DNA of 64,000 nt from Paecilomyces variotii (Eukaryota): NCBI GenBank assembly GCA_004022145.1, contig RCNU01000002.1. One strand, written 5' to 3'. Made by a program: the position numbers and the translations under genes. Of the stretch, positions 5,371-35,514 are shown one piece after another; the first letter of the stretch is position 1; every line of letters begins with the position of its first letter. The notes under the pieces were generated by a model. The model did not search any database. It was not told the DNA's origin and saw nothing but the letters and a program-made list of their open reading frames with translations.

Positions 5371-7545
5371 CTACGCCTTTGCCGCGGCCTTCTCGATCTT
5401 CCTTCTCTTGCTACGCAGCTTCTGAGCCTCCGCGTCCTTCTTCTTGTTGGAGTAGAGCATCTTATCCAGAAGCTTGCGCTTCTTCCGGCTCATCATCATC
5501 TTCTGTCTCTCCAGCTCCTCCTCTTCCTTGCGCTTCTTGGCTGCATGCTTCTTTGACTGGGCAGATTGCTTCTTGCCCTTATCCGCACCGCTGCCTGCGG
5601 TGTAAGGAAGACCAGCAGCCTCGGCCTCAAGTTCCTTCTGGTGCTGGGTACGAGCGGCCTCTTCCTCATCTTCCGACTCAGACGCGGCCTCCTCCTCGAA
5701 TCCGTCGAATTCTTCATCTTCCTCATCACTCTCACTGTCACTCTCATCTTCGTCCGAATTTGCGAGTTCGATATCCATGCCGCCATCGACGGACTCATCG
5801 TCCTCGTCATCTTCTTCAGACTCCTCCACGGCTTTGGAAGATTGTTTCTTCTTCTCCTTGGGGGCATCCTCCATTTCCTCGTCGCTCTTGTCTTCCTCCT
5901 CATCCTCTTCCTCGGCAGACATCTCGGCTTCGTCTTCTTCCTCCTGCTCAGCAAGGCTGGCACGAGGATCGTAGGCACCCTTGCTCGGCTTCACCCAGGG
6001 GCTTAGGTGGGGTGGAAGAGTAGCACCAGGTGCGTAGAGATCAGGACGAAGCAGTTTTTCTTCGTTGATACAGTCCCAAACCCACTGGGGCTGGATGTAC
6101 GTCCTTCCTGGGACACGCATTCCAGGTCTGATCTTCTGAACAGCTCCATCCTTCTTATCGTCAGGGATAGAAGGGAGAGATGACTCAGGAAGAGGCGGCC
6201 GGTCGACGATCTGGTGAGTGATCCTCGGGTCGGACTCGTCCGTCGTGAAGGCACCGTCACCTAGGACTGGATCCCATCCGATACGCTTGCAGCCGAACGC
6301 ACGCAGGATGAACTCAAGTGGGCCTCGAGGAGCCTCTCTAGAGATGAAAAAAGTGAAAGGCGCGAAAAGGGAACCAGCTTCGTTGCCACTTAGCCCTGGT
6401 TGAGGAAGCGTGTCGGCTTCCGGTGCTGCGGGCTCGAACTTATCGATCGCGTCTTCGTTCGCTTCCTCCGCCTCGACCACCTGCTCCTCGGGTTCCTCGT
6501 CCAGCGCAGCAGTCTTGATCATACTGTCCACCTTCTCCTGGATCTCACGCGAGACTTCCTTGTCTGCATGGCCATTGGCCTGGGAGCCTTTGGCTTCAAT
6601 CGCCTTGAGAGCACTGACCTGCTTGCCCTCCAGGGAGAATGCCGCCAGCTCTGCACCATTTTCATCACTGCGAGTGTCGAACTTCGGCGGATACACAAGA
6701 CCAATTGATGAGTAGAGTCTGAAGTTGACAAAGCCGAGTAGAGTGGTGTAGAACTGAACGAAGGTGGCCATTATCCGGTAGTCGACATCTCCGCTGACTT
6801 TCTGGACAAAGCGGTAGGGGACAAGCCACATGATATCCTGGCCCTGGATAGTCGCTTGGTAGTAGATACCCTTGATGGACAGGAACGACTTTCGAAGCGA
6901 ATTGGTGGTGATAAGGTAGTGCTGGAACTCATGGCACAAGCGCTGACACAGTGCGATCGTCTTTGGGGGCACATTGGCGTCAGACGGAAGGTTCGCGAAA
7001 AGGAACAGAAGCGAAAGAGCATCATCGAGATCTCTTAGCGCATCGATGAAGGTCGGGTATCGCTCCTTGATGATGTGGTCGAGAGTGAGCTTGGGGGCGT
7101 TGTTCTTTTCCAAACGAGCGGCATCGCCAACTTCTCCTCGACCCAGGGACCGTGCGATCTTCTTGGAGAGCGCCTTCTGATCGCGAAACTTTCTGAGCAG
7201 TGGCTCATGAAGAAGATACTGGATATCTTTCGTGTAGTAGAAAGTAGTATTCGGAGTCGCGGTCTTGGACGCCTTCTTCTTGTTACGAGGCTCACGGGGA
7301 TAGATACCTGAAGATCTCGATATGTGAGCATTCTATTTATCCGCAGGTATGGCGAGGAAAAATTTGCATACCCTTGAAGATGCATAGCCTTCGGAAATCA
7401 GGCAGGGAAATCTGAAGCTTGCGCACTGCCTGCGTTCTGGTGATGTAGTTTTTCGCCTGACCAGACGTGCCTGTGAAAAATTAGCAATTACCCTCATGGA
7501 GCGCATGATGGCCTGGAACGCACCCTTCTTCTTGATCTTCGCCAT
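5371..7545 (-). CDS. nop7: Pescadillo / Nop7 ribosome biogenesis protein (introns ~7523-7471 and ~7371-7308)
   Basis: Spliced N-terminus [66 protein letters not shown] region ([26 protein letters not shown]); acidic tract and basic C-terminus. Confidence 0.96.
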
Positions 7546-7774
7546 CTTTTCGTAGTTGTGGTTACCAGGAGTCGATGGTTGCGGCGACCGATAACGAAAA
7601 AAAGTTATCTGAGACTTTTCTGGTGCGGGAGCCGGAGAAAAGCTGGCGGTGGTCCGTGCAGGGCGGAGTCTGGGCGTTCACATCTCAGGACAGCTGGAGA
7701 GAAACATGAGCTCCTCGAGCGCCGCGCCCACGTCTATTGCTCTCGACTACGGGCATGGGACTCTCTGAGCGGCG

Positions 7775-16548: not shown

Positions 16549-17797
16549 CCATGACAAACCACCTCAGGAATTTCACTCCAGCAACAGCCATAGTTCCAAC
16601 TAATATATAGGCCTTATGACTAGACTTGGCTACCGAAAAGCAGAGTCAGTGCTGTCTACCTGGTCTCTTCATCTGAATGTCTAATGATATCATCCTTCTT
16701 TAGCAGCCCGCTGTATCTACTAGAACATAATGAGAACGACAATGTATCGCTGCGGAGTGATCAACTTTCTGTCCAATATCCACATACTCGGCCTTTCAGA
16801 GCGATCACTGACTCGGCCGTGGCACTGGCTATGGGCCGAGAACGGAAAGTCAGTCAGGTATGAAGTCGAGATATCAGAAGACGTTCAGTAGTGAATATTC
16901 GATTAACCAGGTTGTTACAATCTAGCGTTCTCTATTTCAACTCTAATTACAAATAAAGGTATTCCGCACCCACGCTATATAACCATTGCAGCTCGACATC
17001 TCACGATACGTCCTGAGGACTCCGTTGGTAACGGGCTCATCTGACAACTCATGTTTAGACTTCCTCTTCCTCAGCGACATTCAGCCCTCGGCGATTTGCT
17101 TTTCTCAATCTGGCTTACGAGGATGGCCTTTTATTTTTGAGTGATAATAAATACCGGTCACATTTTTATTCAAGAGCATGGAGTATGGAGATTATCAGAG
17201 GCACATCCGTCTCGGAGAAGGAATATTGTTCGCTTCATGGTCCATCGCGTCACAAAATGCTAGCCAAGAATGATAGATGTAGGAAACGAGAAAAGAACGT
17301 TCGCATAAACATTGTAGACCGTATTTCAGAAGCGTACTGAAGAGTGAGTCTCATAACTAGTTATATAACTTGTATGACAAAGCTGAGCTGGCGAGTGCTA
17401 TCCAAACTGGGAATAGTCGGTTCAACCCTATTGATATGATGGATGCAACACATGAATAAAAAGAGGCAGTGCGACTGGAAAGCTAAGCGCTGATGGCTTT
17501 TTCGAGATTGCTCTATCGTCTCAGGCAGACATGATATGATTGGTCCTGAGAAGACGTAGCAAGGACTGTGCAATCAATATGAGGATACCGTTTTCTGCAT
17601 TAAGTGTGGTTATGTAGACATAGTCACTATGAACGCATGAGGGTAGTAGGAAATAGCGAGGTTATAGAATTCTTGTTATGCAATGGGTTCCATTTACATG
17701 AATTTGCTGCTGGGAAGAGGTCCAATCCGAATAGATGCATTTTACCTTCTGCTATTATCAAGACATTATGTACAGATGAGTTAAATATGTATATCCA

Positions 17798-18847
17798 CTA
17801 AAGAGCCCCAAATTTCTGCAATTCCGCCTCAGTCCACTCCCACAATCGTTTCCCCATGTCCTTGTTCACTGCATAATAATTCTTGGCTTTCAGTATCCCA
17901 ACTGGGACATAGTATGCACCGTTCATCAAGTTCTCCTTTTTGGCCCCCGCAGCGGCCCAGAGTTGATTATAGGCGCCCTTAGACAATGGAGTAGCGAAGA
18001 CCCCCATGACCCTCGAAGAGACAGTCGTAAAAATAGAATTTTTCCACATGGAGTCATAAAGGTCAGTCAGGATAATACCAGGGTGGACAGACACCGATGT
18101 GAGTGAAGGGTAGCGACGAGCTAGCTCTGCTGCGAACAAGATATTGGCGGCTTTAGATGCACCGTATCGGACCATGCTCTGACTAGTCTTTTTCAACTTC
18201 TTCTGGTCCAAGATACTCTCGAACGACGGGGCCATGTTATGTCCTATAGACGAAAGAGAGATAACTCGGACATCGGAGTTCGGCTCTTCTGCGGTTTTAA
18301 GCAGAGTGGGCATAAGCAGCTTTGTTAGAAAGAAGTGACCGGTGTGATTCGTGCCAAGCTGGATTTCATGACCCATCTCTGTTTCACCTGGCGGCAGAGC
18401 CATGACTCCAGCATTGAGCATCAGAATATCCAGTCTCGAGGCCTGTGATTTGAATGTCTCTGCAGCATTCTTGATAGAAGTTGTAGACGTCAAGTCCAAA
18501 GGGAGCCAGGTGATGTTCACGTCCTTGCCAAGGCTGTTCTTGATGGAGTCAATTGCATCCTTTGCTTTGGACTCTGAGCGAGCAGCAAGGAAGATATGCT
18601 GCGGGTTGTGTTTGGCAAGTTGGAAGACGGACTCCTTGCCCAATCCCGCGTTTCCTGTATAGTTGCTTCAGTTGAGGATGTTCATCTCCATCAATGATCG
18701 CTTTGGCGATCGCACTTATTGACTGCACATACCACCAGTTACCAGAATAACCTTTCCTGTAAGATCTCCAATGTCCCTATCCGGTTCGAAATTAACTGAA
18801 CCCATGTAACTACATGGATTCACAAAATCTGCGACCAACGATGCCAT
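17798..18847 (-). CDS. Short-chain dehydrogenase/reductase (retinol dehydrogenase/WWOX-like), 1 intron
   Basis: DLTGKVILVTG|GNAGLG Rossmann motif across the intron, LDILMLNAGVM, TNHTGHF, catalytic YGASK, SVHPG. Start is 18847 or 18805. Confidence 0.9.
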
Positions 18848-19666
18848 TTTCAAGGGTAAATTGAACACGTTGGGCCAATACTCTGGGACGTCAATGTTGG
18901 CAGACTCAATATGCCGGACAGTTGAAGTGACTGCTATTCATTCCCCAGGGTTATTGCTGCCCTAAAACCACGCCAGTTATTTAATCATGACTGTGAACTG
19001 TATCCATCGAGGTCGACCCCATGGCGTAGCGATCAGGTCTCTACTTTGTGGAGAATCGGCGAGACTCAAACGCCCGAGTTATTCAAGCATCCTGGAAGAA
19101 GTATCCACTAAAGGGGATTCCATACCAGAGAGCCCCCAATGAAAAGTGGTCTGGGATCAATTAGTCTCGACGGAAAGGTATGTCCAAACGGTTTAGGTTT
19201 GGATACATTTGCCTCAGCTACAAATGCCTCGGTACAACGTGCCTGTCGGGCAGTCGGAGGTTAACATTCCGCCGGTCAGTGAACTGTTGGCATTAACTGT
19301 TTCATCTTGACTCTAACAGTAACAATATGACTCTTTGTGTTTTCATCTATCTTAAATTATATTCAGCCATAAAGTGTGCAAAACAAAGTTTCCCTTCCAC
19401 CTAGCTGTAGCGGGTTATATATTCAGCCTAGAATAGGCGGTGTGTGAGTAGTTATCCGGGATGGTGATCAGATCGTGGCGAGAAACTTCAATTTATAAAC
19501 TGTAAAAAAGGGAATAGGAAAAGAAAAGAGCAATAACAACCCGACAAGGAACTATCTGGTATTTTTTATTTTCAATTTTTTGACACTGTCCACGCATTTT
19601 ACAAGAAAAAGATGGTACGAACAGCCTCCGCTCATATAGCCTCAAACGGAAAGTTACTGCAAATCG

Positions 19667-19791
19667 GGTGCTGTGGTCTAGTGAGTTTACCTTTAACCAA
19701 CCACATCACCAACTTAAAACTAACCCCCCAATTGGTGGTAGGACGTCACGTTGTGGCCGTGCCAGCCTGGGTTCGATTCCCAGCAGCGCCA
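19667..19791 (+). tRNA. tRNA-His(GUG), copy 1, with a 54-nt D-loop intron (19681-19734)
   Basis: Joined exons give 71 nt: acceptor GGTGCTG/CAGCGCC, D-stem GTCT/GGAC with loop AGTGGTA, anticodon loop TTGTGGC (GTG 19753-19755), T-arm CTGGG-TTCGATT-CCCAG, discriminator A, downstream T6 Pol III terminator. Confidence 0.88.
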
Positions 19792-20959
19792 AAATTAAAT
19801 ATCTTTTTTGGTCCCTTTCTATATCATAGCGCGGGTTACACTCGAGATAGCCGGGACTGGCTTTTTTCTTTTTTTCTTTCTCTCTTTCACTTTCCTTTAA
19901 ATCAGTTTTGCAAGACCCGTTGTGTATACCAGGAATGGAAACAATCTTATTTGAAGGAGGTTTGAGAATTCTAGAAAAATGCATGTAAGATAGAGGCCAT
20001 GTCCGTCCACGGGTAAAAGCCGACGTTTGTTCTCTAGGACATGATTCTTTGTGTGTTCTAAAATGTTAAATCTAATCTCGAGCAGAAATAGTCATAGTAC
20101 ATCTATTCTGCTTTGTCGCGATGTAGTAATCGCCTGGATGCGTTCGAACACAGCTTGCCTTGAAGATCAAAAAAGGTGGTGCAACTTCTCAGTTCGCAGT
20201 GATACACACAATGTTTGTCGAAACTCACCGATATTCTATCCAGTTGTCCCAGCAGGATCGCGCGAGATAGTATGTTATGGCACATTCTGGTTTTCTTTTT
20301 TTCAATCTCAAGGCGTGTCTTATTGAAATTGTTGCAATCGCTGAATATAAAGCTTGAGATGACGGAAGTAAGTACTGAAAGGACATTGTATTCTCTGTTT
20401 CAAGGGAATTTGTCTCCATTGCAGGTTCTATTATCAACATGGAATTAATATGGTATGTGAGAATCATTCTCATAATCAAAGTCGTATCTCTCATTGTTGG
20501 ATATGCTCACATATGATAATTTGGTTCTCAATCTCTTAGTTACGCCAAGTCAAGTCAGTGTTGAGGTAAACAGCTATCCGCTGATATTGGTGGATATCTG
20601 AGTAGTTAGAATTCTCTGAATCCGTCGCATTAACAGCGCTTTTACGTTTAATACTGGCTTCAGCCACCACTCGTTTTGCTAGCCTTTGACTCCTTCATGT
20701 CTAGCCTTAGATGAAATCCTCCCTCACCTGCTTGAAACCAGATTATGGCCGGACATAGTTGTCAAATGATTAAAGCACGTAATTGCATATCGAGGTTAGT
20801 GTTCCCGACTTAGATGGCTCCGTCTCGACTGTCAGTCCAGACGGTGATCTTCTTTACGAGAACGGGTAATTGTTCCGCGCACCGACGTAGCAATTTGGAA
20901 AAAGTATATTGAGAAGCACTATAGACATGCTCAGGTTACGGCGAAGTATATGAATATGA

Positions 20960-21560
20960 TCTTCTCTGCGTTGTGGTTGAATATGGTATCATAGACGTTC
21001 TTCGCATGCTGCTTGATCATCATTTAGAGTACCAAATTCCGCTTGTATATACGCCACCTGGAAACGATTCAATTCCTGCTCGATAAGAATGGGCTCAAAC
21101 TACTATTACCCACAGCGAAAGCCTGATTTGCATGCTCCTCACAAGGGGGCTTTGGTTCGCAATGCTGATTCTATCCGACAGCCAGGACAGCAGCGTGAAC
21201 AACACAGTTCGAAACCGTGCTTGGATGGGCTGCCTCCAGGGCTAGCTATAATTTAGTGTCCCCTCTTATTGCCAACGGGGCGAATGTCCATGCTCGGCAG
21301 ATGGGTCCTGCAGGTTCTCGGCTTGGTATCCAGCAGGTCACTGCGCTGCATGTGCGAGCTCTTGCTGGAATTATAGAAGCCATGCAGGTACTACTGAATC
21401 ATTGCGGTCGCGATATCGAGCTTTCAGAGATGGTATCTCGGCGTGGTAGCAAGAGATGTCTCCCACCGCACTGGGTGGCCGCGGGCAACACTCAGTGATG
21501 AAGACCTGCTCCCCAACGATGAGTCTACTCACCAGACCATAGAGACCTTCAGGCTGATAT
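20960..21560 (+). pseudogene. Degenerate ankyrin-repeat gene remnant
   Basis: Fragments LCVVVEYGIIDVLRMLLDH, VLGWAASRASYNLVSPLIANGANVHA and VTALHV..., broken by stops and frameshifts. Confidence 0.55.
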
Positions 21561-22608
21561 TAACGGGCAACGCTCCTCTCGATGAAGGTGTGGGGGTTGG
21601 GGCAAGCTCCTGGCCAGGTAGTCAAGGAATAGACCACTTGAGAGGACACATGAGGGCCGCATTTGAGCGCAAGATGGGATGGGTCGGGAATTTCAAGAAG
21701 CCGAAGGCTTAATGGATAAACCGAATAATGCGAGAAATGTACCATCACAGCGATCGGAAGAAGTGATGCCAAATGGGATAGTGAGGAAGAGTGGGGAGAA
21801 GACGATTTGCCTGAAGGGGTAACCTCCCCATACGTCTATAAGATGAGTTCTACTGCAGCAGGCATGAATAAAACTCTTTTCTCTCTCCAGTTTTCTGCAC
21901 TGCACGAATGCTACTTGATTCCATACAAGTTTCTCTATCGAACTACTCTTGCTGTTTGTCCCATCTTTTCAAATGGCCTGCTCTCGTTGTCCCGGATGCG
22001 CTTGCTTCTGCGATATAGTACGTCGATCGTCGCTCTTCAAGCCGTGCCTTCAAAAGCGGCAAATCTGTGACTTGAGCAAAATGTGGCCACAAGAGACCCT
22101 GTCTAGTCAGGTGGATTGAATCTCAGCATTCACATTGAACGCTGCCCAGAAGCACATCGATTTGTTCCCACAATGTTGGGTTGCCATCCGCTTGAAAACG
22201 ATAATACGCGAAGTCGATGTCCAACACATATCCACCAGGTCTCCCGGTCTCGATTCCAAACGAGGCAACTCAATTGATTTGTATGTGACCGAGGTTAGCG
22301 TAAAGTCCCAAAAAGAGTCCCTTGCCTCTTTTGCGTGTATAGCAGAACCCTGTTTCGTACCATTCTTCAAAGGCGGGAAATCGGTGACGAGAAGTGGGCG
22401 TAAGTAAGCTAGTCAGGATACAAAGACAGATTTATGACTTCTTAACTTATTTTCACGCGATAGAGTAAGGACAGTAACCCTTGGCTTTTTATTCATAACT
22501 AATGCGCGGTCTTAGGATACTGTACAGTGTATGCTATCATTGGCTCGCATCTATCTCTGGTTCACTAGCTTCATAAGTTTCCACGGGTCTGATTAGATCA
22601 TCAAATCG

Positions 22609-22732
22609 GGTGCTGTGGTCTAGTGAGTTTTGCCTTTCATCCAGCATCAACCAACTTTAACTAACCCCCCCATTGGTGGTAGGACGTCACGTTGTGGCCG
22701 TGCCAGCCTGGGTTCGATTCCCAGCAGCGCCA
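22609..22732 (+). tRNA. tRNA-His(GUG), copy 2, with a 53-nt D-loop intron (22623-22675)
   Basis: Exons identical to copy 1; intron diverged internally but keeps GTGAGTTT...ACTAACCCCCC.ATTG; T-runs follow 3'. Confidence 0.88.
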
Positions 22733-24497
22733 ATCTTGTATATCTTTTTGCATTTTTTCTCTTCATTTTTTTCTTCGGCAAGATGATGGTCTACTGACAA
22801 ATCGGCACGACATAAGGGCATCGAGGTCTAGATCACTTGGCTTCCACGGGCCTCCTTCAATTTGTGGGAAGGGAATATATGAGTAGGTAGGTAGGTGTAC
22901 TTGATTGGGTTTATGATCTGTCTGATATTTGAAGCGACGTTATCCTCCAGCCTGCAACAACTGTGGACAAATTCTTTTTCTAGTTTTATGTATATTTTTG
23001 GTGTGGGCTGTATAAGTACTTGATGGACTGGATTTTATTCCTAAAAGTTCTAACGTAAACACACCACAATTGACCTTTACGCTCCTTGACTATGGAATCT
23101 TTCCAGGTCTATAGGAGAGAAAGCTGAAGCTGTTATCAAATATACCAAGCGTCTGCCTTTCTCCACGTAATATGGAATCTAATCTCACCGACCATCTTGG
23201 AAAGATGAGGCTGCCAGCCATTGTATCGTTCCGTAGCACAGTCACGGTATATCTGAAGACTCTTTGTCGGAGTCCAACTCTGGTATGCCGCTTTCAAGCA
23301 TCCAAAGCCATTGATACGCATATGGATGGTTCATATCCTCTGGTATTCGGCAGAACTTGACAAAGCTGAAGATCTTTGGTGGAACCTGGAACCTTTTCCT
23401 TTAGAGCCGTTGGGAATATGATGTCACTAGGGAATCGCAATCTTCAAGTTTGCTCAGAACCACAAGAAGTATGACTGACCTTGTTGAAAAGACATAAGAT
23501 GTTTAATCAAGTTCTTCTGTCTATTGGATGATATTTCGTATTTTTCGAACTATATCAGCTTGCATTCTCAAGGTAGCCGAAGACATTCGTTGAATAAAGA
23601 TTCTCTGGTTCTCGATCTATTATAGCAGCCTTTCTCGCTTTCTCTATGCTGGAAATAAAAGTAAATCCAATCCCAGGTTGGGGTTTCCTTTCTACATATA
23701 TCAGTATTTTCATGCGAAACTCCCTACGCAAGGGCATTCAACAGTGTTTTCAGCATTTGTGCATGCTATTGATTGTGCAGGGGTGGACGAAGAAAACGAA
23801 ATGCATACTGATATAGAAGAAGTGTAGTTTGATAGGCGATCGAGCACCATATTGGTATTTTGGCTAGGAGACTCAAGGGAATGTGGATGAATACGTCGCT
23901 CTCATCAGGTCCAGAACAACGAGTGATTAGTTGAAATGTACTACTTGAGGGCCAAATATAACTTGATACCATTCGAATGGCCATGGGGACCGGCCAGTCT
24001 AGAGCAGCATCCTGTCTGGCAGAACCTTCAGGCTAGCTTCTCAGTTCTCATTTTCTTCAAGACAGGAGTCCGCACATATTTCGTACAAATATTACGCAGA
24101 TATTATCGCGAAGAGACTGTTTGTCGGCAAGCTCCTGGAGTATCTCGCGCTGGCTAGGTTTACCTATTGTTCGAGACGGTTCACCGTTCCACAGAGGTGA
24201 GATCAGTGGAGTTGGCCCTTCTGCATAACACCCTCGGCAGCGCGCAAGCCATAGTCAGGTTCTCACAATATATTTTCTCTCAATATAAACATCTAACCCA
24301 GAATATAATAAGGCGTCGAGAAGTTATCTAAATCTTGACCGCAACATCCCCTTAGCCCATTGCGAAATAAGGACCTCATGTGCTGTCTATGAGTAGTTTG
24401 TCAAGACACAAATGTAGCAATGCTCGCTTTCACCTCGAATAGACATTCATTTTGCTGAGGGGATAAAAAAACAAAACGCAAAAAGATATTTAAATGT

Positions 24498-24622
24498 TGG
24501 CGCTGCTGGGAATCGAACCCAGGCTGGCACGGCCACAACGTGACGTCCTACCACCAATGGGGGGGTTAGTTTTGAGTTGGTGATGTGGTTGGTTAAAGGT
24601 AAACTCACTAGACCACAGCACC
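24498..24622 (-). tRNA. tRNA-His(GUG), copy 3, with a 54-nt D-loop intron (24608-24555)
   Basis: Exons identical to copies 1 and 2 on the minus strand; intron differs from copy 1 at 2 positions; T-run terminator follows. Confidence 0.88.
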
Positions 24623-25446
24623 GATTTTTATTTGCCAGCGACAATTTAAAGATCTATCAATGCATATGGACGTGCCTGCAACTTTGTCCTGTTCAGGATT
24701 AGCATAGCATATTAGGAGGTGATAGTTACAGAGTGAAAACCATCTCTTTATTATTCTTAACGTCTACTATAATATTAGCTCTATTATACTAGTAGGAAAT
24801 ATTTCTAATAGCCAAAAGGTCTTAATATCGTGATTAGTATAAGGATATCTGTTATTTATTATTTGCATTCTGCGAGGAAGTCCACAAGCCACGCAGCGGA
24901 AAATAACTACCATAACCACTCTGTCTGGGAATACCAATATTATCGAGGGCCACTACTACTAACTGGTATCGGATACGGTCCATCCTCGATCCGATCAGGG
25001 TCTGCACTAGTTGAGAGTCTGTGCAACCCCGCCGTTTCGGATCGTGAACAAGAACAAGTCATGCTCTTCCCCGTGGGACAATTAGTGTACCCCGCGTCGA
25101 GTGGAGATCCGAGGCATTCCCGACTAGCTGACAGGTCGATGCCGAAATATAGTACCGTTGACGATTCTGTCTACCAAGTCATCGGGTAGGCTATTAAGAA
25201 ACCGGGCTTAGCTCTGTACGACAAGCCAGAGACCATATCCCGAATGATCGCTGCGCATCCAGCACGGACCTCAGCATCGGATGCTGCTGTCCGTATTCCG
25301 ATCAATTGAGACTAAAGCGTGGAATGTAGTTGCGACCAGGATAGGATATCATCCAGTACCCCGCGCAGATAACGTAAGTAGGTGATATTTATTACACGCA
25401 AGGAGCAAACCCTGGACTATAACAACCACCCTGGCCCGGGAATTAG

Positions 25447-28047
<2,601 letters not shown>

Positions 28048-28269
28048 TCGCTTGGGCACCGCTAGTTGGATGTGATTTTTTTCTTTTCGAACAGTGGCTT
28101 ATTGATACATATAAATAGATATTCTTTCAATACTATTAAGTTCCTTTTGCCTCAAAGCCAAAACTTAGACTTGAGACGTCAACCCTCTTACTTTATTCTG
28201 TTCAAGTGAGATTTCCTAATGGCTATGCTAAGTACAGCTCACGGCCTCGAATTAAATACCGAGTCTAAT

Positions 28270-33676: not shown

Positions 33677-35514
33677 TCATTTCCTTCCCATAGCACGCTC
33701 AATCTCCGTTAATGCAGCGATCACCTTTTCGTCATAGTGTCTTCGCCCAATGATTTGCAGACTGACTGGCGCATCCTTGTACTTTTCGGGCGTGTACATA
33801 TCGTAAACGAATTGATCTTCTGCGTTTTTCGGTTTGTAATCCAAGTCCTTCTTGTCTTTCTCAGGATCGACCGTTGTGACAGGGAATACGGCGCCGGGAT
33901 AATCCAATAGATTCCAGTTGGAGGTGTATCCCCAATAACGCGATTGTTCATGCGGGGTTGCTGCGCCAAACGAAGGTGGACATAGGATCACGTCGACCTC
34001 CTTTCCATCTGCCTTGCCGGTGTTAGTCCAGTGTTTGGCATATGCTTCTCGATAAGCATCTCTCTCAGCGCAGAGCTATGTAGTCCTCGATTAGCTTACT
34101 GCGTTTATGCACAGGGGATGTATCATGACGTACCTTCCATAGCCCGTGTTGATCCAGCTTCTTCACCGATGGTTGTTCATGAATGATGAATTTCGTGAGC
34201 GGAAGGATTGGTTCACCACCCTCCTCTAGAAGACCCAAGACTTCCTCTCCACCGTCGGGCCAGTACAGCGCTGCTGTAATCTCCCAGCCCCTTCGATGAT
34301 TCAATGATTCGCAGTCCCAGTCAACTACCTCCATTCCTGCAGCCTTGCATGCCTCCGAGACCTCCTTGAGGGCTCGGATCATAGGAGGGTGAGGCATCAC
34401 GACACCATCCCACCATTGTACTGCGATCTTAAGCGGTCTGGTGAATTTATATGGCGTCCACTCCTTGGCTGTCAAAGACGGGTCCAGACGCCAGGGCTTC
34501 ACAGACAGAGCGACTTTCATAAACAGCTCGAGTGCCTCGCGGTCTGTTGTCATGGGTCCCAGCGTCGAGAAAATTGTCTCTTTTCCGATCATGTGGGTTC
34601 GTTGACCACCAGACGGTACACGCTTAACGGTTGGCCAACGGGACTATTAGCATTATGCATAAATCATCTCCTTCAGATTAACATACTTGAACCCATAGAT
34701 ACCAGTATGCGCAGCTGGACAGCGAATACTCCCCCCGATATCTCCGCCAACGCCCTATAATATTCAGCCACAGCTCGGTAGAAAGATAGTATTATACATA
34801 CTAAGACACTTCCACGCATCCCAATCAAAGCCGCCTCGCCTCCACTGCTTCCACCGCACGTCAAATCTCGGTTATAAGGGTTAACCGTCCGCCCGTATAT
34901 ATTGCTGCTGGTCTCTAAGTGCATGATCGTCTGTGGCTGAGTGGTGCGAGCAAAGAAGACACAACCAGCATCCCAGAGGGTATCATAGAGTAATATGGAA
35001 CCTTGTGGCTTGCCGATCCACGCAACATAAGAGGCATTAGCGGTTCCATTTGGTGACTTGGTGCCGTGATGTTCTTTCGTAGAGATGGGTAATCCATGGA
35101 GTGGCCCGACAGGCTCTGGCAAGGAGTCAAGATAGCGAGCTCGTTCGATCGCCTCGTCCCAAAGCAACTCTGTAAGGCAGTTCGTCTAGGGAAGTCAGAA
35201 AACCAAGCCCTCGAATTCTCGCAGTCATAAGAAATACTTACAGCGAAGTGTGCCAGTGCTGCCCGCCGCAGGAAAGCTCTCGTGACCTCCTCAGCGGAAA
35301 GTTCTCTACTATGCAGTTTGGCTAGAAGTTCCGTGACCGAATACTTTTCTGTGATCTCTATCTCTTTGGAAGTTAGGATTGCTTTTGGTAGCTCCTGGGA
35401 GTTGAGAGGCAAGGTGTCCGGTAAGCCCTGAAGAGGGGGCTCGACTCGAGCCACCGACTCATCCCGTTTCGTCCTCGCGATAGAGGCTTTCGCTTCCCAG
35501 GGTTGGATTGTCAT
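33677..35514 (-). CDS. Amidase-signature family amidase (AmdS/acetamidase-like), about 4 introns
   Basis: GPLHGLPISTKE (catalytic Lys), GGSSGGEAAL, GGDIGGSIRCPAA, GFKPT, YTSNWNLLDYPGAVFP. Confidence 0.93.

Follow-up and report, generated by a model that had tools for sequence, protein, structure and literature searches.

Three interrupted tRNA-His(GUG) loci

The window, that is, the whole stretch of 64 kb that was analyzed, contains three loci at which a tRNA-His(GUG) gene is interrupted in the D-loop (19667-19791 and 22609-22732 on the plus strand, and 24498-24622 on the minus strand). A 14-nt exon 1 and a 57-nt exon 2, with the same letters in all three copies, flank an insert of 54, 53 and 54 nt in copies 1, 2 and 3, respectively. 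The insert lies between tRNA positions 14 and 19. The positions of the features are given in Table 1. When the exons were joined by a script, ARAGORN identified a 71-nt tRNA-His(gtg) in each of the three copies. The GUG anticodon is in a 7-nt loop, and the cloverleaf is obtained only once the insert is taken out. A U27-C43 mismatch in the anticodon stem of the joined tRNA is common to an uninterrupted gene, L007 (described below). Thus, the identical 14- and 57-nt exons, the 71-nt GUG cloverleaf with its B-box and oligo-T run, and the insert of 53-54 nt after A14 that a sequence-only reading had described were confirmed in all three copies.

The T-loop box GGTTCGATTCC is present in the three copies and was assigned by eye as the B box. 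An A-box-like TGGTCTAGTGA is retained because the insert begins with GTG; the spacing between the A and B boxes has grown by 53-54 nt. Runs of T5-T6 are found 12-13 nt past A73 in all copies, whereas the longest T run within any insert is T4 (copy 2), and no run of five or more occurs there. These box and T-run calls were made by eye against the Pol III consensus motifs. The three copies lie within a stretch of about 6.5 kb that has no ORF of more than 142 aa.

Table 1. Features of the three interrupted tRNA-His(GUG) loci.
Feature	Position	Strand	Basis
Copy 1 exon 1 (tRNA positions 1-14)	19667..19680	+	sequence, ARAGORN on joined exons
Copy 1 insert, 54 nt (register 0); GTGAGT start, ACTAAC 19719-19724, branch A 19723, ATTG end	19681..19734	+	
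Copy 1 exon 2, 57 nt; D-loop remainder, GUG anticodon arm, T arm, acceptor 3′ strand, A73	19735..19791	+	
Copy 1 first AG past branch box, inside exon 2	19740-19741	+	
Copy 1 T6 run, Pol III terminator-like	19804..19809	+	
Copy 2 exon 1	22609..22622	+	
Copy 2 insert, 53 nt; GTGAGT start, ACTAAC 22660-22665; middle unlike copies 1 and 3; one T4 run	22623..22675	+	
Copy 2 exon 2	22676..22732	+	
Copy 2 T5 run, then T6 run at 22753-22758	22745..22749	+	
Copy 3 exon 1	24609..24622	-	
Copy 3 insert, 54 nt; GTGAGT start, ACTAAC 24570-24565; 2 of 54 positions unlike copy 1	24555..24608	-	
Copy 3 exon 2	24498..24554	-	
Copy 3 T5 run	24480..24484	-	

With default settings, ARAGORN reported no tRNA gene in the 64-kb window, and Rfam gave no match there at the gathering score. 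At E ≤ 1, the only Rfam matches were tmRNA (17-20.5 bits) and mascRNA (24.2 bits). When introns were allowed, ARAGORN placed the three loci at their exact coordinates and miscalled them as Asn(att) or Lys(ctt). The suspicion that standard finders may miss such genes was therefore justified.

Splice signals of the insert and its 3′ junction

All three inserts start with GTGAGT, which fits the U2-type 5′ splice site GTRAGT, and contain ACTAAC, which fits the branch box RCTRAC; the branch A is 11 nt before the tRNA-restoring end, as had been read from the letters. For 200,000 random 54-mers with the base composition of the window, the combination of AGT following a GTG start and RCTRAC at 5-35 nt before the end had a frequency of 3.6e-4. 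Eleven other intron candidates, defined by pattern, were found in the window (37-143 nt, with 7-32 nt from the branch A to the end), and one of them, 26744-26803, is frame-continuous. The tRNA inserts are within or at the edge of the range of these eleven in both length and branch distance. An introner-like or repeated intron family would have related copies in other genes; in a blastn-short search of the 64-kb window, the three inserts matched only the three loci, the next matches being 15 nt or shorter.

The 3′ end is different. The insert end that restores the tRNA is ATTG (TTG/G) in all three copies, not YAG. Since GTG is repeated at both insert borders, cuts in any of four registers (14/15 to 18/19) lead to one and the same product; the equivalent registers end in TTG, TGG, GGT and GTG, and a YAG at a junction giving a functional product was found in no register of any copy. 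This TTG end had been overlooked in the earlier reading, and its statement that the insert is built like the mRNA introns of the window was not confirmed. The intron is not of the full mRNA type: the cloverleaf-restoring junction is UUG/G, not YAG/N. One T-to-A substitution would be enough for a perfect AG at the needed junction; it is seen in no copy, despite the diverged insert of copy 2.

The nearest YAG is a TAG/G located 7 nt inside exon 2 (D-loop/D-stem), 18 nt from the branch A. A scan for GT..RCTRAC..YAG stretched all three inserts to this exon-2 TAG (61, 60 and 61 nt). Judged from these positions, canonical GT-AG splicing would delete G15-G22 and leave a 64-nt RNA. The downstream AG would be the expected choice of a normal spliceosome, and its use would destroy the tRNA.

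Other intron classes were also compared. TSEN/BHB tRNA introns are located at position 37/38, whereas the insert is between positions 14 and 19. No bulge-helix-bulge beyond chance was found at the exon-insert borders, in agreement with the earlier reading; the only candidates were G-U-rich permissive ones with at most 5-6 Watson-Crick pairs of 10, and shuffled inserts did as well in 827, 1282 and 811 of 2000 cases. In Ire1/HAC1-type introns, each of the two cuts falls in a 7-nt loop that has C at -3 and G at both -1 and +3. By eye, no register fits this at the 5′ border, and the consensus is absent from both borders.

Conservation of the copies and their uninterrupted relatives

The exons are identical among the three copies at 71 of 71 positions, although the flanks can be aligned only to about -8 and +20-35. 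Between the inserts of copies 2 and 3, 15 of 55 aligned columns differ, and the first 5 and the last 17 columns are free of differences (P 8.7e-5 by the hypergeometric distribution, for a partition picked after viewing the data); copies 1 and 3 differ at 2 of 54 positions. The middle of the copy 2 insert has thus diverged while the exons and the signals were kept, as the earlier reading had it. Invariant exons and insert ends, as against the changed middle of copy 2, suggest selection, and this pattern supports the view that the three loci are real tRNA-His(GUG) gene copies under constraint.

The joined 71-mer was compared with uninterrupted fungal-type tRNA-His genes at metagenome loci. It matched L007 at 66/71 and L037 at 60/71 positions, and the next best among 43 loci reached 57/71. 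The D-loop AGTGGTA is common to the joined form, L007 and L037, and the anticodon and T arms are identical to those of L007. By this alignment, the joined product is shown to be orthologous to uninterrupted fungal tRNA-His. Table 1 of PMC6108506 lists tRNA-His of A. niger as 71 bp without an intron and as 84 bp with a 12-bp intron. The joined form resembles these canonical genes (A. niger, L007 and L037) in its 71-nt length, GTG anticodon, D-loop, A73 and T-run terminator; however, the canonical genes are uninterrupted or have a short intron, presumably at the canonical position.

In X15, a DNA run of the organism, all six records were the interrupted form or pieces of its flanks. Neither the 19680-to-19735 join nor any 90%-similar uninterrupted contig was found among these six records. 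A 75-nt unitig (19718-19792) leads from the insert into exon 2 without a branch at 19735 or elsewhere, and its depth of 111.9, compared with 41-45 in the flanks, corresponds to about 3 copies. For A. niger, PMC6108506 gives at least 8 tRNA-His genes, so that three is on the low side.

Runs X2-X4 are labelled as RNA. Since they yielded contigs of 29-176 kb, they contain DNA; in these DNA-laden runs, the exons of the window appeared only in the interrupted form. In one X4 contig, the upstream flank is about 5% diverged (262 nt with 13 substituted letters and 3 gaps); farther on, the same contig covers exon 1 and all of the insert, where 3 letters of 121 nt differ. Thus, the interrupted form persists in a diverged lineage. 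The same fermentation samples also yielded uninterrupted relatives, namely, record 10 of X2 (depth 4.6) and record 16 of X3 (depth 5.6). Over 56-58 nt, these contigs differ at 5 letters; their leader is not the same either, and their depth is one fifth to one quarter as high. They are therefore those of another organism.

Possible routes of removal

The best reading of these results, which we put forward tentatively, is that the genes are functional and that a spliceosome-derived intron is removed at a UG 3′ site. The three loci would form a small, selectively maintained nuclear tRNA-His(GUG) family, possibly the only one of the organism. The common ancestor of the copies would have gained a spliceosomal-type intron piece of about 54 nt in the D-loop, between A14 and G19. 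Pol III would transcribe the unit from the retained A-box-like TGGTCTAGTGA and the intact B box, with no T run of five or more in the insert and a T5-T6 terminator after the gene. U1 and U2 would recognize GUGAGU and ACUAAC, and a lariat of exactly 53-54 nt would be removed, with the non-canonical UG/G, 11 nt past the branch A, serving as the 3′ site in preference to the AG 7 nt downstream. Removal would restore the 71-nt cloverleaf. Of the spliceosomal interpretation proposed earlier, the constrained tRNA-His(GUG), the 5′ site, the branch box and the lack of a bulge-helix-bulge stand, and an intron of the full mRNA type does not.

Spliceosomal removal would face a specific difficulty, namely, the canonical TAG/G 7 nt downstream, within the local branch range. 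The insert has no relatives elsewhere in the 64-kb window, which also counts against this reading. The 14-nt 5′ exon sits in the D-stem and acceptor stem, a further point against removal by the spliceosome: these stems would need unfolding in the spliceosome's exon channel, and unfolding also exposes the downstream AG. The stronger claim, that every tRNA-His gene of the fungus has a D-loop intron removed by the spliceosome at GU...UG, making an essential cytosolic tRNA dependent on mRNA splicing, is doubtful.

Related cases are known. As reviewed in the relevant part of PMC5855946, introns in Pol III-made U6 snRNA are removed by the spliceosome in Schizosaccharomyces pombe and many other fungi, and mRNA-type introns also occur in U1, U2 and U5 snRNA and ascomycete rRNA genes. 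Like the U6 introns described there, the insert is short, carries a 5′ splice site and a branch box in a small structured non-coding Pol III RNA gene, is lineage-specific and was probably gained by insertion. In contrast, its host is a tRNA, which is absent from the list in that review (PMC5855946), and it has no AG at the RNA-restoring junction, whereas the U6 introns have canonical 5′, branch and 3′ sites. TG 3′ splice sites in U2-dependent introns were verified in 36 human genes according to the abstracted results of PMC2374985; such a GT...TG intron shares the rare, experimentally verified non-AG ending. However, the human TG sites are alternatives beside AG in mRNAs (PMC2374985), and the TG of tRNA-His would have to be productive against the AG 7 nt downstream. 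Non-canonical-position tRNA introns described in portions of PMC4090602 and PMC3728597 comprise archaeal BHB introns, ectopic introns of Cyanidioschyzon merolae and introns in the D and T arms of cryptophyte and chlorarachniophyte nucleomorphs. They share with the insert a location in the D region rather than at 37/38, and standard finders miss them; for the nucleomorph introns, the removal route is likewise unexplained (PMC4090602). However, they are BHB-dependent or 3-24 nt long (PMC4090602), whereas the insert is 53-54 nt, has no BHB beyond chance and carries spliceosomal 5′ and branch motifs; its host is a fungus-type nuclear genome.

The loci might instead be dead or not tRNA genes: an insertion would have inactivated an ancestral tRNA-His, local duplication would have followed, and working tRNA-His would come from genes elsewhere whose similarity is below 90% or which were removed by filtering. 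We consider this unlikely. The needed junction has no AG and canonical splicing would destroy the D-loop, the copies lie in the 6.5-kb stretch without a longer ORF, the window's exons occur only in interrupted form in the RNA-labelled, DNA-laden runs, tRNA-His genes are more numerous in typical aspergilli (as far as PMC6108506 tabulates them), and uninterrupted relatives occur in the same fermentation samples; all these fit dead loci. However, dead loci do not account for 0 differences at 71 exon positions in three copies with unalignable flanks, compared with 15 changed columns in the middle of the copy 2 insert. The insert ends are also invariant; an intact donor gene would lack them, so that their invariance cannot be put down to conversion from such genes. 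Furthermore, the six X15 records contain no joined or 90%-similar uninterrupted contig, the exon-2 unitig is unbranched at 19735, and the uninterrupted contigs of X2 and X3 belong to another organism.

Quite unlikely is the removal of the insert from functional genes by a protein-only or other route, e.g., TSEN-like cleavage and Trl1 ligation on a non-canonical structure, with the splice-like motifs being relics or having another role. In the accounts consulted, TSEN together with a ligase is responsible for the removal of every nuclear tRNA intron known (PMC10275265, PMC4090602), and D-arm introns with unexplained removal exist in nucleomorphs and Cyanidioschyzon (PMC4090602). For such a route, the absent AG poses no problem. 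In copies 1 and 3, the 3′ junction is in an 8-bp helix with the insert, and insert nt 8-11 can pair with G18-A21 by eye, an A-to-G change in copy 2 keeping the pair as G-U. However, the 8-bp helix is lost in copy 2, and BHB-like arrangements are no better than in the shuffled inserts. The ruler mechanism of eukaryotes measures the distance to position 37/38 rather than to the D-loop, and the loop consensus of Ire1 is, by eye, found at neither border. The exact invariance of GTGAGT and AACTAAC would also be left without a reason.

Very unlikely, in our view, is that the spliceosome removes the canonical GT-AG intron of 60-61 nt (19681-19741 and equivalents), leaving a D-loop-less 64-nt RNA that either has a role other than as a tRNA or is degraded, the locus then being self-limiting or regulatory. 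It is exactly this intron that the GT..RCTRAC..YAG scan selects in each of the three copies, and its 18-nt branch distance is typical of the window; however, the 7 nt that would be lost make up the ancestral D-loop and agree with L007-type genes in every letter, the leftover GTCTAGAC is unable, by eye, to form a D-arm, and the exon conservation would serve no purpose. It is extremely unlikely that the tRNA functions without splicing and accommodates the insert as a giant expansion of the D-loop: a cloverleaf can form around the looped-out insert at 1.5-1.9 kcal/mol above the free MFE, but the insert parts A14 from G15-G19, the builders of the elbow, the conserved splice-like motifs are left without a reason, and we know of no precedent.

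In the textbook division, as outlined in sections of PMC12530127 and PMC10275265, spliceosomal introns belong to Pol II transcripts and a few snRNAs, and TSEN introns to tRNA position 37/38. A conserved tRNA family whose D-loop holds a 5′ site and a branch box of the spliceosomal type would straddle this boundary; no report of a tRNA gene with such an mRNA-like D-loop intron was found in searches of the literature. Because ARAGORN in default mode and Rfam miss such genes, tRNA-His would be annotated as missing from genomes. If the insert stays in, the gene family is conserved for some other reason, and if another enzyme removes it, fungi have a new excision route. If the spliceosome removes it, the supply of a tRNA would be coupled to mRNA splicing, and the loci would be a natural test of 3′ site choice without AG. 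If this is true for every tRNA-His gene, tRNA-His would be the first known example of a tRNA that relies on the machinery of mRNA splicing, and it would provide a natural instance of a non-AG 3′ splice site whose use is obligatory.

Anatomy and detection of the genes

The sequence-only reading had proposed three tRNA-His(GUG) genes interrupted in the D-loop, and all three loci were borne out. A script cut each of them at GTGAGT and where the second tRNA part begins. Exon 1 (14 nt) and exon 2 (57 nt) were each identical in the three copies, and the inserts measured 54, 53, and 54 nt in copies 1, 2, and 3, respectively. When the exons were joined in the script, ARAGORN called a 71-nt tRNA-His(gtg) in every case. 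The joined tRNA possesses a 7-bp acceptor stem, a 4-bp D-stem, a 7-nt D-loop, the GUG anticodon, a 4-nt variable region, a normal T arm, and A73, and ARAGORN places a single U-C mismatch at the top of its anticodon stem. A T5-T6 run lies 12-13 nt past A73 in each of the three genes.

Coordinates of the genes, their inserts and neighbouring features
Feature	Position	Strand	Remark
Copy 1	19667-19791	+	
Copy 1 insert	19681-19734	+	exon 2 from 19735
Copy 2	22609-22732	+	
Copy 2 insert	22623-22675	+	
Copy 3	24498-24622	-	
Copy 3 insert	24555-24608	-	
Position -1, copy 1	19666		G (..TCG|GGTGCTG)
Position -1, copy 2	22608		G (..TCG|GGTGCTG)
Position -1, copy 3	24623		C (..ATC|GGTGCTG)
Palindrome at insert 3' border, copy 1	19727-19737		CCAATTGG; CCCATTGG there in copies 2 and 3
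T4 run in copy 2 insert	22628-22631		GAGTTTTGCC
First AG 3' of ACTAAC, copy 1	19739-19741		TAG within exon 2
Downstream flank, copy 2	22740-22766		
Downstream flank, copy 3	24463-24489		
Short-chain-dehydrogenase-like ORF	17798-18937	-	left neighbour of the gene-poor stretch
Gene-poor stretch with the tRNA cluster	about 19000-25500		no stop-to-stop ORF >142 aa
Split FAD-monooxygenase-like gene	about 26063-28047	+	right neighbour of the gene-poor stretch
Candidate intron	26744-26803		removal restores the open frame between two coding ORF pieces
Weak ARAGORN call (-ps90)	7544-7645		
Weak ARAGORN call (-ps90)	27851-28067		
Weak ARAGORN call (-ps90)	34539-34619		

The genomic base at position -1 differs among the copies, and AAATCG just 5' of the gene is common to all three. 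The G-1 of eukaryotic tRNA-His is normally added post-transcriptionally. With its T4 run, the copy 2 insert could weakly signal Pol III to stop; the other two inserts have at most T3.

Standard finders miss the genes, as had been anticipated: ARAGORN with default settings reported no gene in the window, and Rfam at gathering score gave no match. At E<=1, the only Rfam matches within 19400-24900 were tmRNA (17-20.5 bits) and mascRNA (24.2 bits). When introns were allowed, ARAGORN returned the three loci with exactly the boundaries of the sequence-only reading, miscalled as Asn(att) or Lys(ctt) and with misplaced introns. At a lowered threshold (-ps90), three further weak calls appeared, two of Arg(gcg), each with an intron, and one of Asp(gtc), 81 nt in length; Rfam at gathering score had nothing at those sites.

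Uninterrupted relatives, copy number and origin of the insert

A metagenome scan with the anticodon loop and T arm yielded 43 loci, of which 41 were, by eye, other tRNA-His types, mostly bacterial-looking. The remaining two, L007 and L037, are uninterrupted genes with the same D-arm region as the joined form, A73, and T runs downstream. They match the joined form at 66/71 and 60/71 positions, respectively, and the next best locus at 57/71. An uninterrupted gene was also found in X2 (record 10, depth 4.6) and X3 (record 16, depth 5.6), two runs from fermentation samples, where the identical 14-nt exon 1 is joined directly to position 19735. Its leader is different and its exon 2 (19735-19792) has five other letters; this gene comes from a different organism of lower abundance, probably a related fungus present in those fermentation samples. 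Thus, uninterrupted relatives indicate that the insert is derived in this lineage. An exon-only pattern with a 40-70-nt gap had no match in metagenome_contigs and genome_contigs, where fungal DNA is so scarce that the result is not informative.

Of the sampled words of 17700-27600, a fraction of 0.99 occurs in the DNA run X15, which is probably from the same organism. None of its six matching records joins the exons, all being flank or interrupted pieces. Nothing like the uninterrupted tRNA-His of X2 and X3 appeared among these six, in a comparison whose filter drops some records and which covers tRNA-His genes of at least 90% similarity. A 75-nt X15 unitig (19718-19792) spans the final 17 nt of the insert and exon 2 without branching, with a depth of 111.9 versus 41-45 in unique flanks. 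Since this unitig would be split at 19735, and be deeper, if an uninterrupted gene shared its exon 2, we infer from this one run that there are probably about three tRNA-His copies, all interrupted. A. niger is reported to have at least eight tRNA-His genes, which are either intronless and 71 bp long or interrupted by a 12-bp intron and 84 bp long (PMC6108506); next to these, three genes would be few.

The runs labelled RNA (X2, X3, and X4) were compared, like X15, over 19300-20150. Their longest contigs measure 176, 87, and 29 kb, and their depth over the intergenic flanks is 21-46. Long contigs and intergenic coverage mean that DNA is present, so these runs are uninformative on transcription or splicing. 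The X2 tRNA unitigs are somewhat deeper (63.8 and 160.3) than the flanks (28.5-46), a difference to which we give no weight.

The orientation of copies 2 and 3 is tail to tail, and the first 27 nt compared in their downstream flanks, past the gene, retain 81% complementarity, which suggests an inverted local duplication. Copy 1 has only the gene unit in common with the other two.

The direct repeat at the insert borders is 3 nt long, which fits filler DNA inserted during microhomology break repair. In Daphnia, such filler insertion has reportedly been proposed as a source of new introns. The filler here might have been an intron piece reaching from the 5' site to 11 nt past the branch point. 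No other copy of the insert as a repeated element was found within the 64-kb window.

Splice-like signals and the missing AG

GTG stands at both borders of the insert (..CTA|GTGAGT.. and ..ATTG|GTGG..). Thus, there are four possible cut registers, from tRNA positions 14/15 to 18/19, all giving one product. Depending on the register, the removed piece ends in TTG, TGG, GGT, or GTG, and in none of the four in AG. The first AG 3' of ACTAAC is the TAG within exon 2, 18 nt past the branch A. A window-wide scan with the pattern GTRAGT..RCTRAC..YAG gave 14 candidates, three of which are the tRNA inserts lengthened to this TAG (61, 60, and 61 nt); the other 11, among them the frame-restoring candidate at 26744-26803, span 37-143 nt, with branch-to-end distances of 7-32 nt. 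The best-looking intron for a canonical spliceosome is therefore the 60-61-nt one. Two-thirds of the earlier claim that the insert has the same architecture as the mRNA introns hold: the insert matches in its 5' site and branch box and fails to match in its 3' site.

Among 200,000 random 54-mers of window composition, given a GTG start, the frequency of AGT at insert positions 4-6 combined with RCTRAC 5-35 nt before the end was 3.6e-4. Thus, by either origin or selection, the insert resembles a spliceosomal intron. The observation is real and not a product of chance, and the interpretation in the sequence-only reading is partly supported, with one important flaw.

Routes of excision and their meaning

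We put first, tentatively, the reading in which the genes are functional and the spliceosome may cut at the UG. To our knowledge, the spliceosome is the only machine that accounts for the exact invariance of GTGAGT and AACTAAC. Passages of PMC5855946 describe the Pol III transcript U6 snRNA as acted on by the spliceosome in fission yeast and other fungi, and an excerpt of PMC2374985 lists TG as a non-AG 3' ending with experimental support in 36 human genes. Against a cut at the UG stand the better AG 7 nt downstream and the fact that none of the three copies has the T-to-A change that would make an AG at the right place. It also counts against such a cut that threading of the 14-nt 5' exon through the exon channel of the spliceosome should unfold the tRNA body and expose the AG. 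Speculatively, the two exons, paired in the acceptor and D stems, could present G15 beside A14 and hide the AG, the G of which occupies D-stem position 22.

That the loci are dead, or are not tRNA genes, is rather unlikely. Outside the genes, alignable sequence among the three copies ends after about 8 nt on the upstream side and 20-35 nt on the downstream side, yet none of the 71 exon positions varies. Between copies 1 and 3, the inserts differ at 2/54 positions. The reported divergence in the middle of the copy 2 insert was confirmed, with 15 of 55 aligned columns differing from copy 3, all between columns 6 and 38. The first five and the last 17 columns (AACTAAC, the C run, and ATTG) show no difference; the hypergeometric P for this pattern is 8.7e-5, with a partition picked after the data were seen. 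Conversion by intact genes does not explain the constancy of the insert ends, because intact genes carry no insert ends. An X4 contig whose upstream flank has 13 other letters and three gaps in 262 nt relative to the window has three other letters in 121 nt across exon 1 and the whole insert; the two that are listed, 19715 and 19730, lie outside the motifs. We read these patterns as probable purifying selection on the exons and both insert ends, and this forms the chief argument against pseudogenes.

Every X15 contig that covers 19730 has C instead of the window's A, and the copy-1/3-type contig has C at 19715. The copy 1 insert is apparently identical there to that of copy 3, by either strain variation or conversion between copies.

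Functional genes whose insert leaves by another route are unlikely. The absence of a bulge-helix-bulge motif held up: the strict form occurred in none of the four cut registers. When G-U pairs and bulges of 2-4 nt were permitted, the scan gave weak candidates in which at most 5-6 of the 10 pairs were Watson-Crick, and shuffled inserts did equally well in 827, 1282, and 811 of 2000 cases. The stability of the precursors was no different from that of shuffles (z-scores -1.02, -0.43, and -0.94 for copies 1-3). In folding, the cloverleaf around the insert costs a predicted 1.5-1.9 kcal/mol. In copies 1 and 3, the 3' junction is part of an 8-bp helix formed with the insert, a helix that is not kept in copy 2. 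Ire1-type loops were ruled out by eye against the consensus, and neither a known ribozyme nor another Rfam family was found in 19400-24900.

Canonical splicing at the AG into a non-tRNA product is very unlikely; removal of the 60-61-nt GT..AG intron would delete G15-G22, the entire D-loop and one D-stem pair. Function in the unspliced form is extremely unlikely.

Our search of the main texts of openly accessible papers turned up neither a spliceosomal-type intron within a tRNA gene nor an intron in the D-loop of a fungal tRNA-His. In passages of tRNA reviews (PMC10275265, PMC4090602, PMC12530127), eukaryotic tRNA introns are described as TSEN-removed, and non-canonical positions are given only for nucleomorphs and Cyanidioschyzon. 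Excerpts of PMC5855946 list spliceosomal introns for U1, U2, U5, and U6 snRNA and rRNA genes, and not for tRNA genes. If true, every reading except that of dead loci would be new biology for tRNAs.
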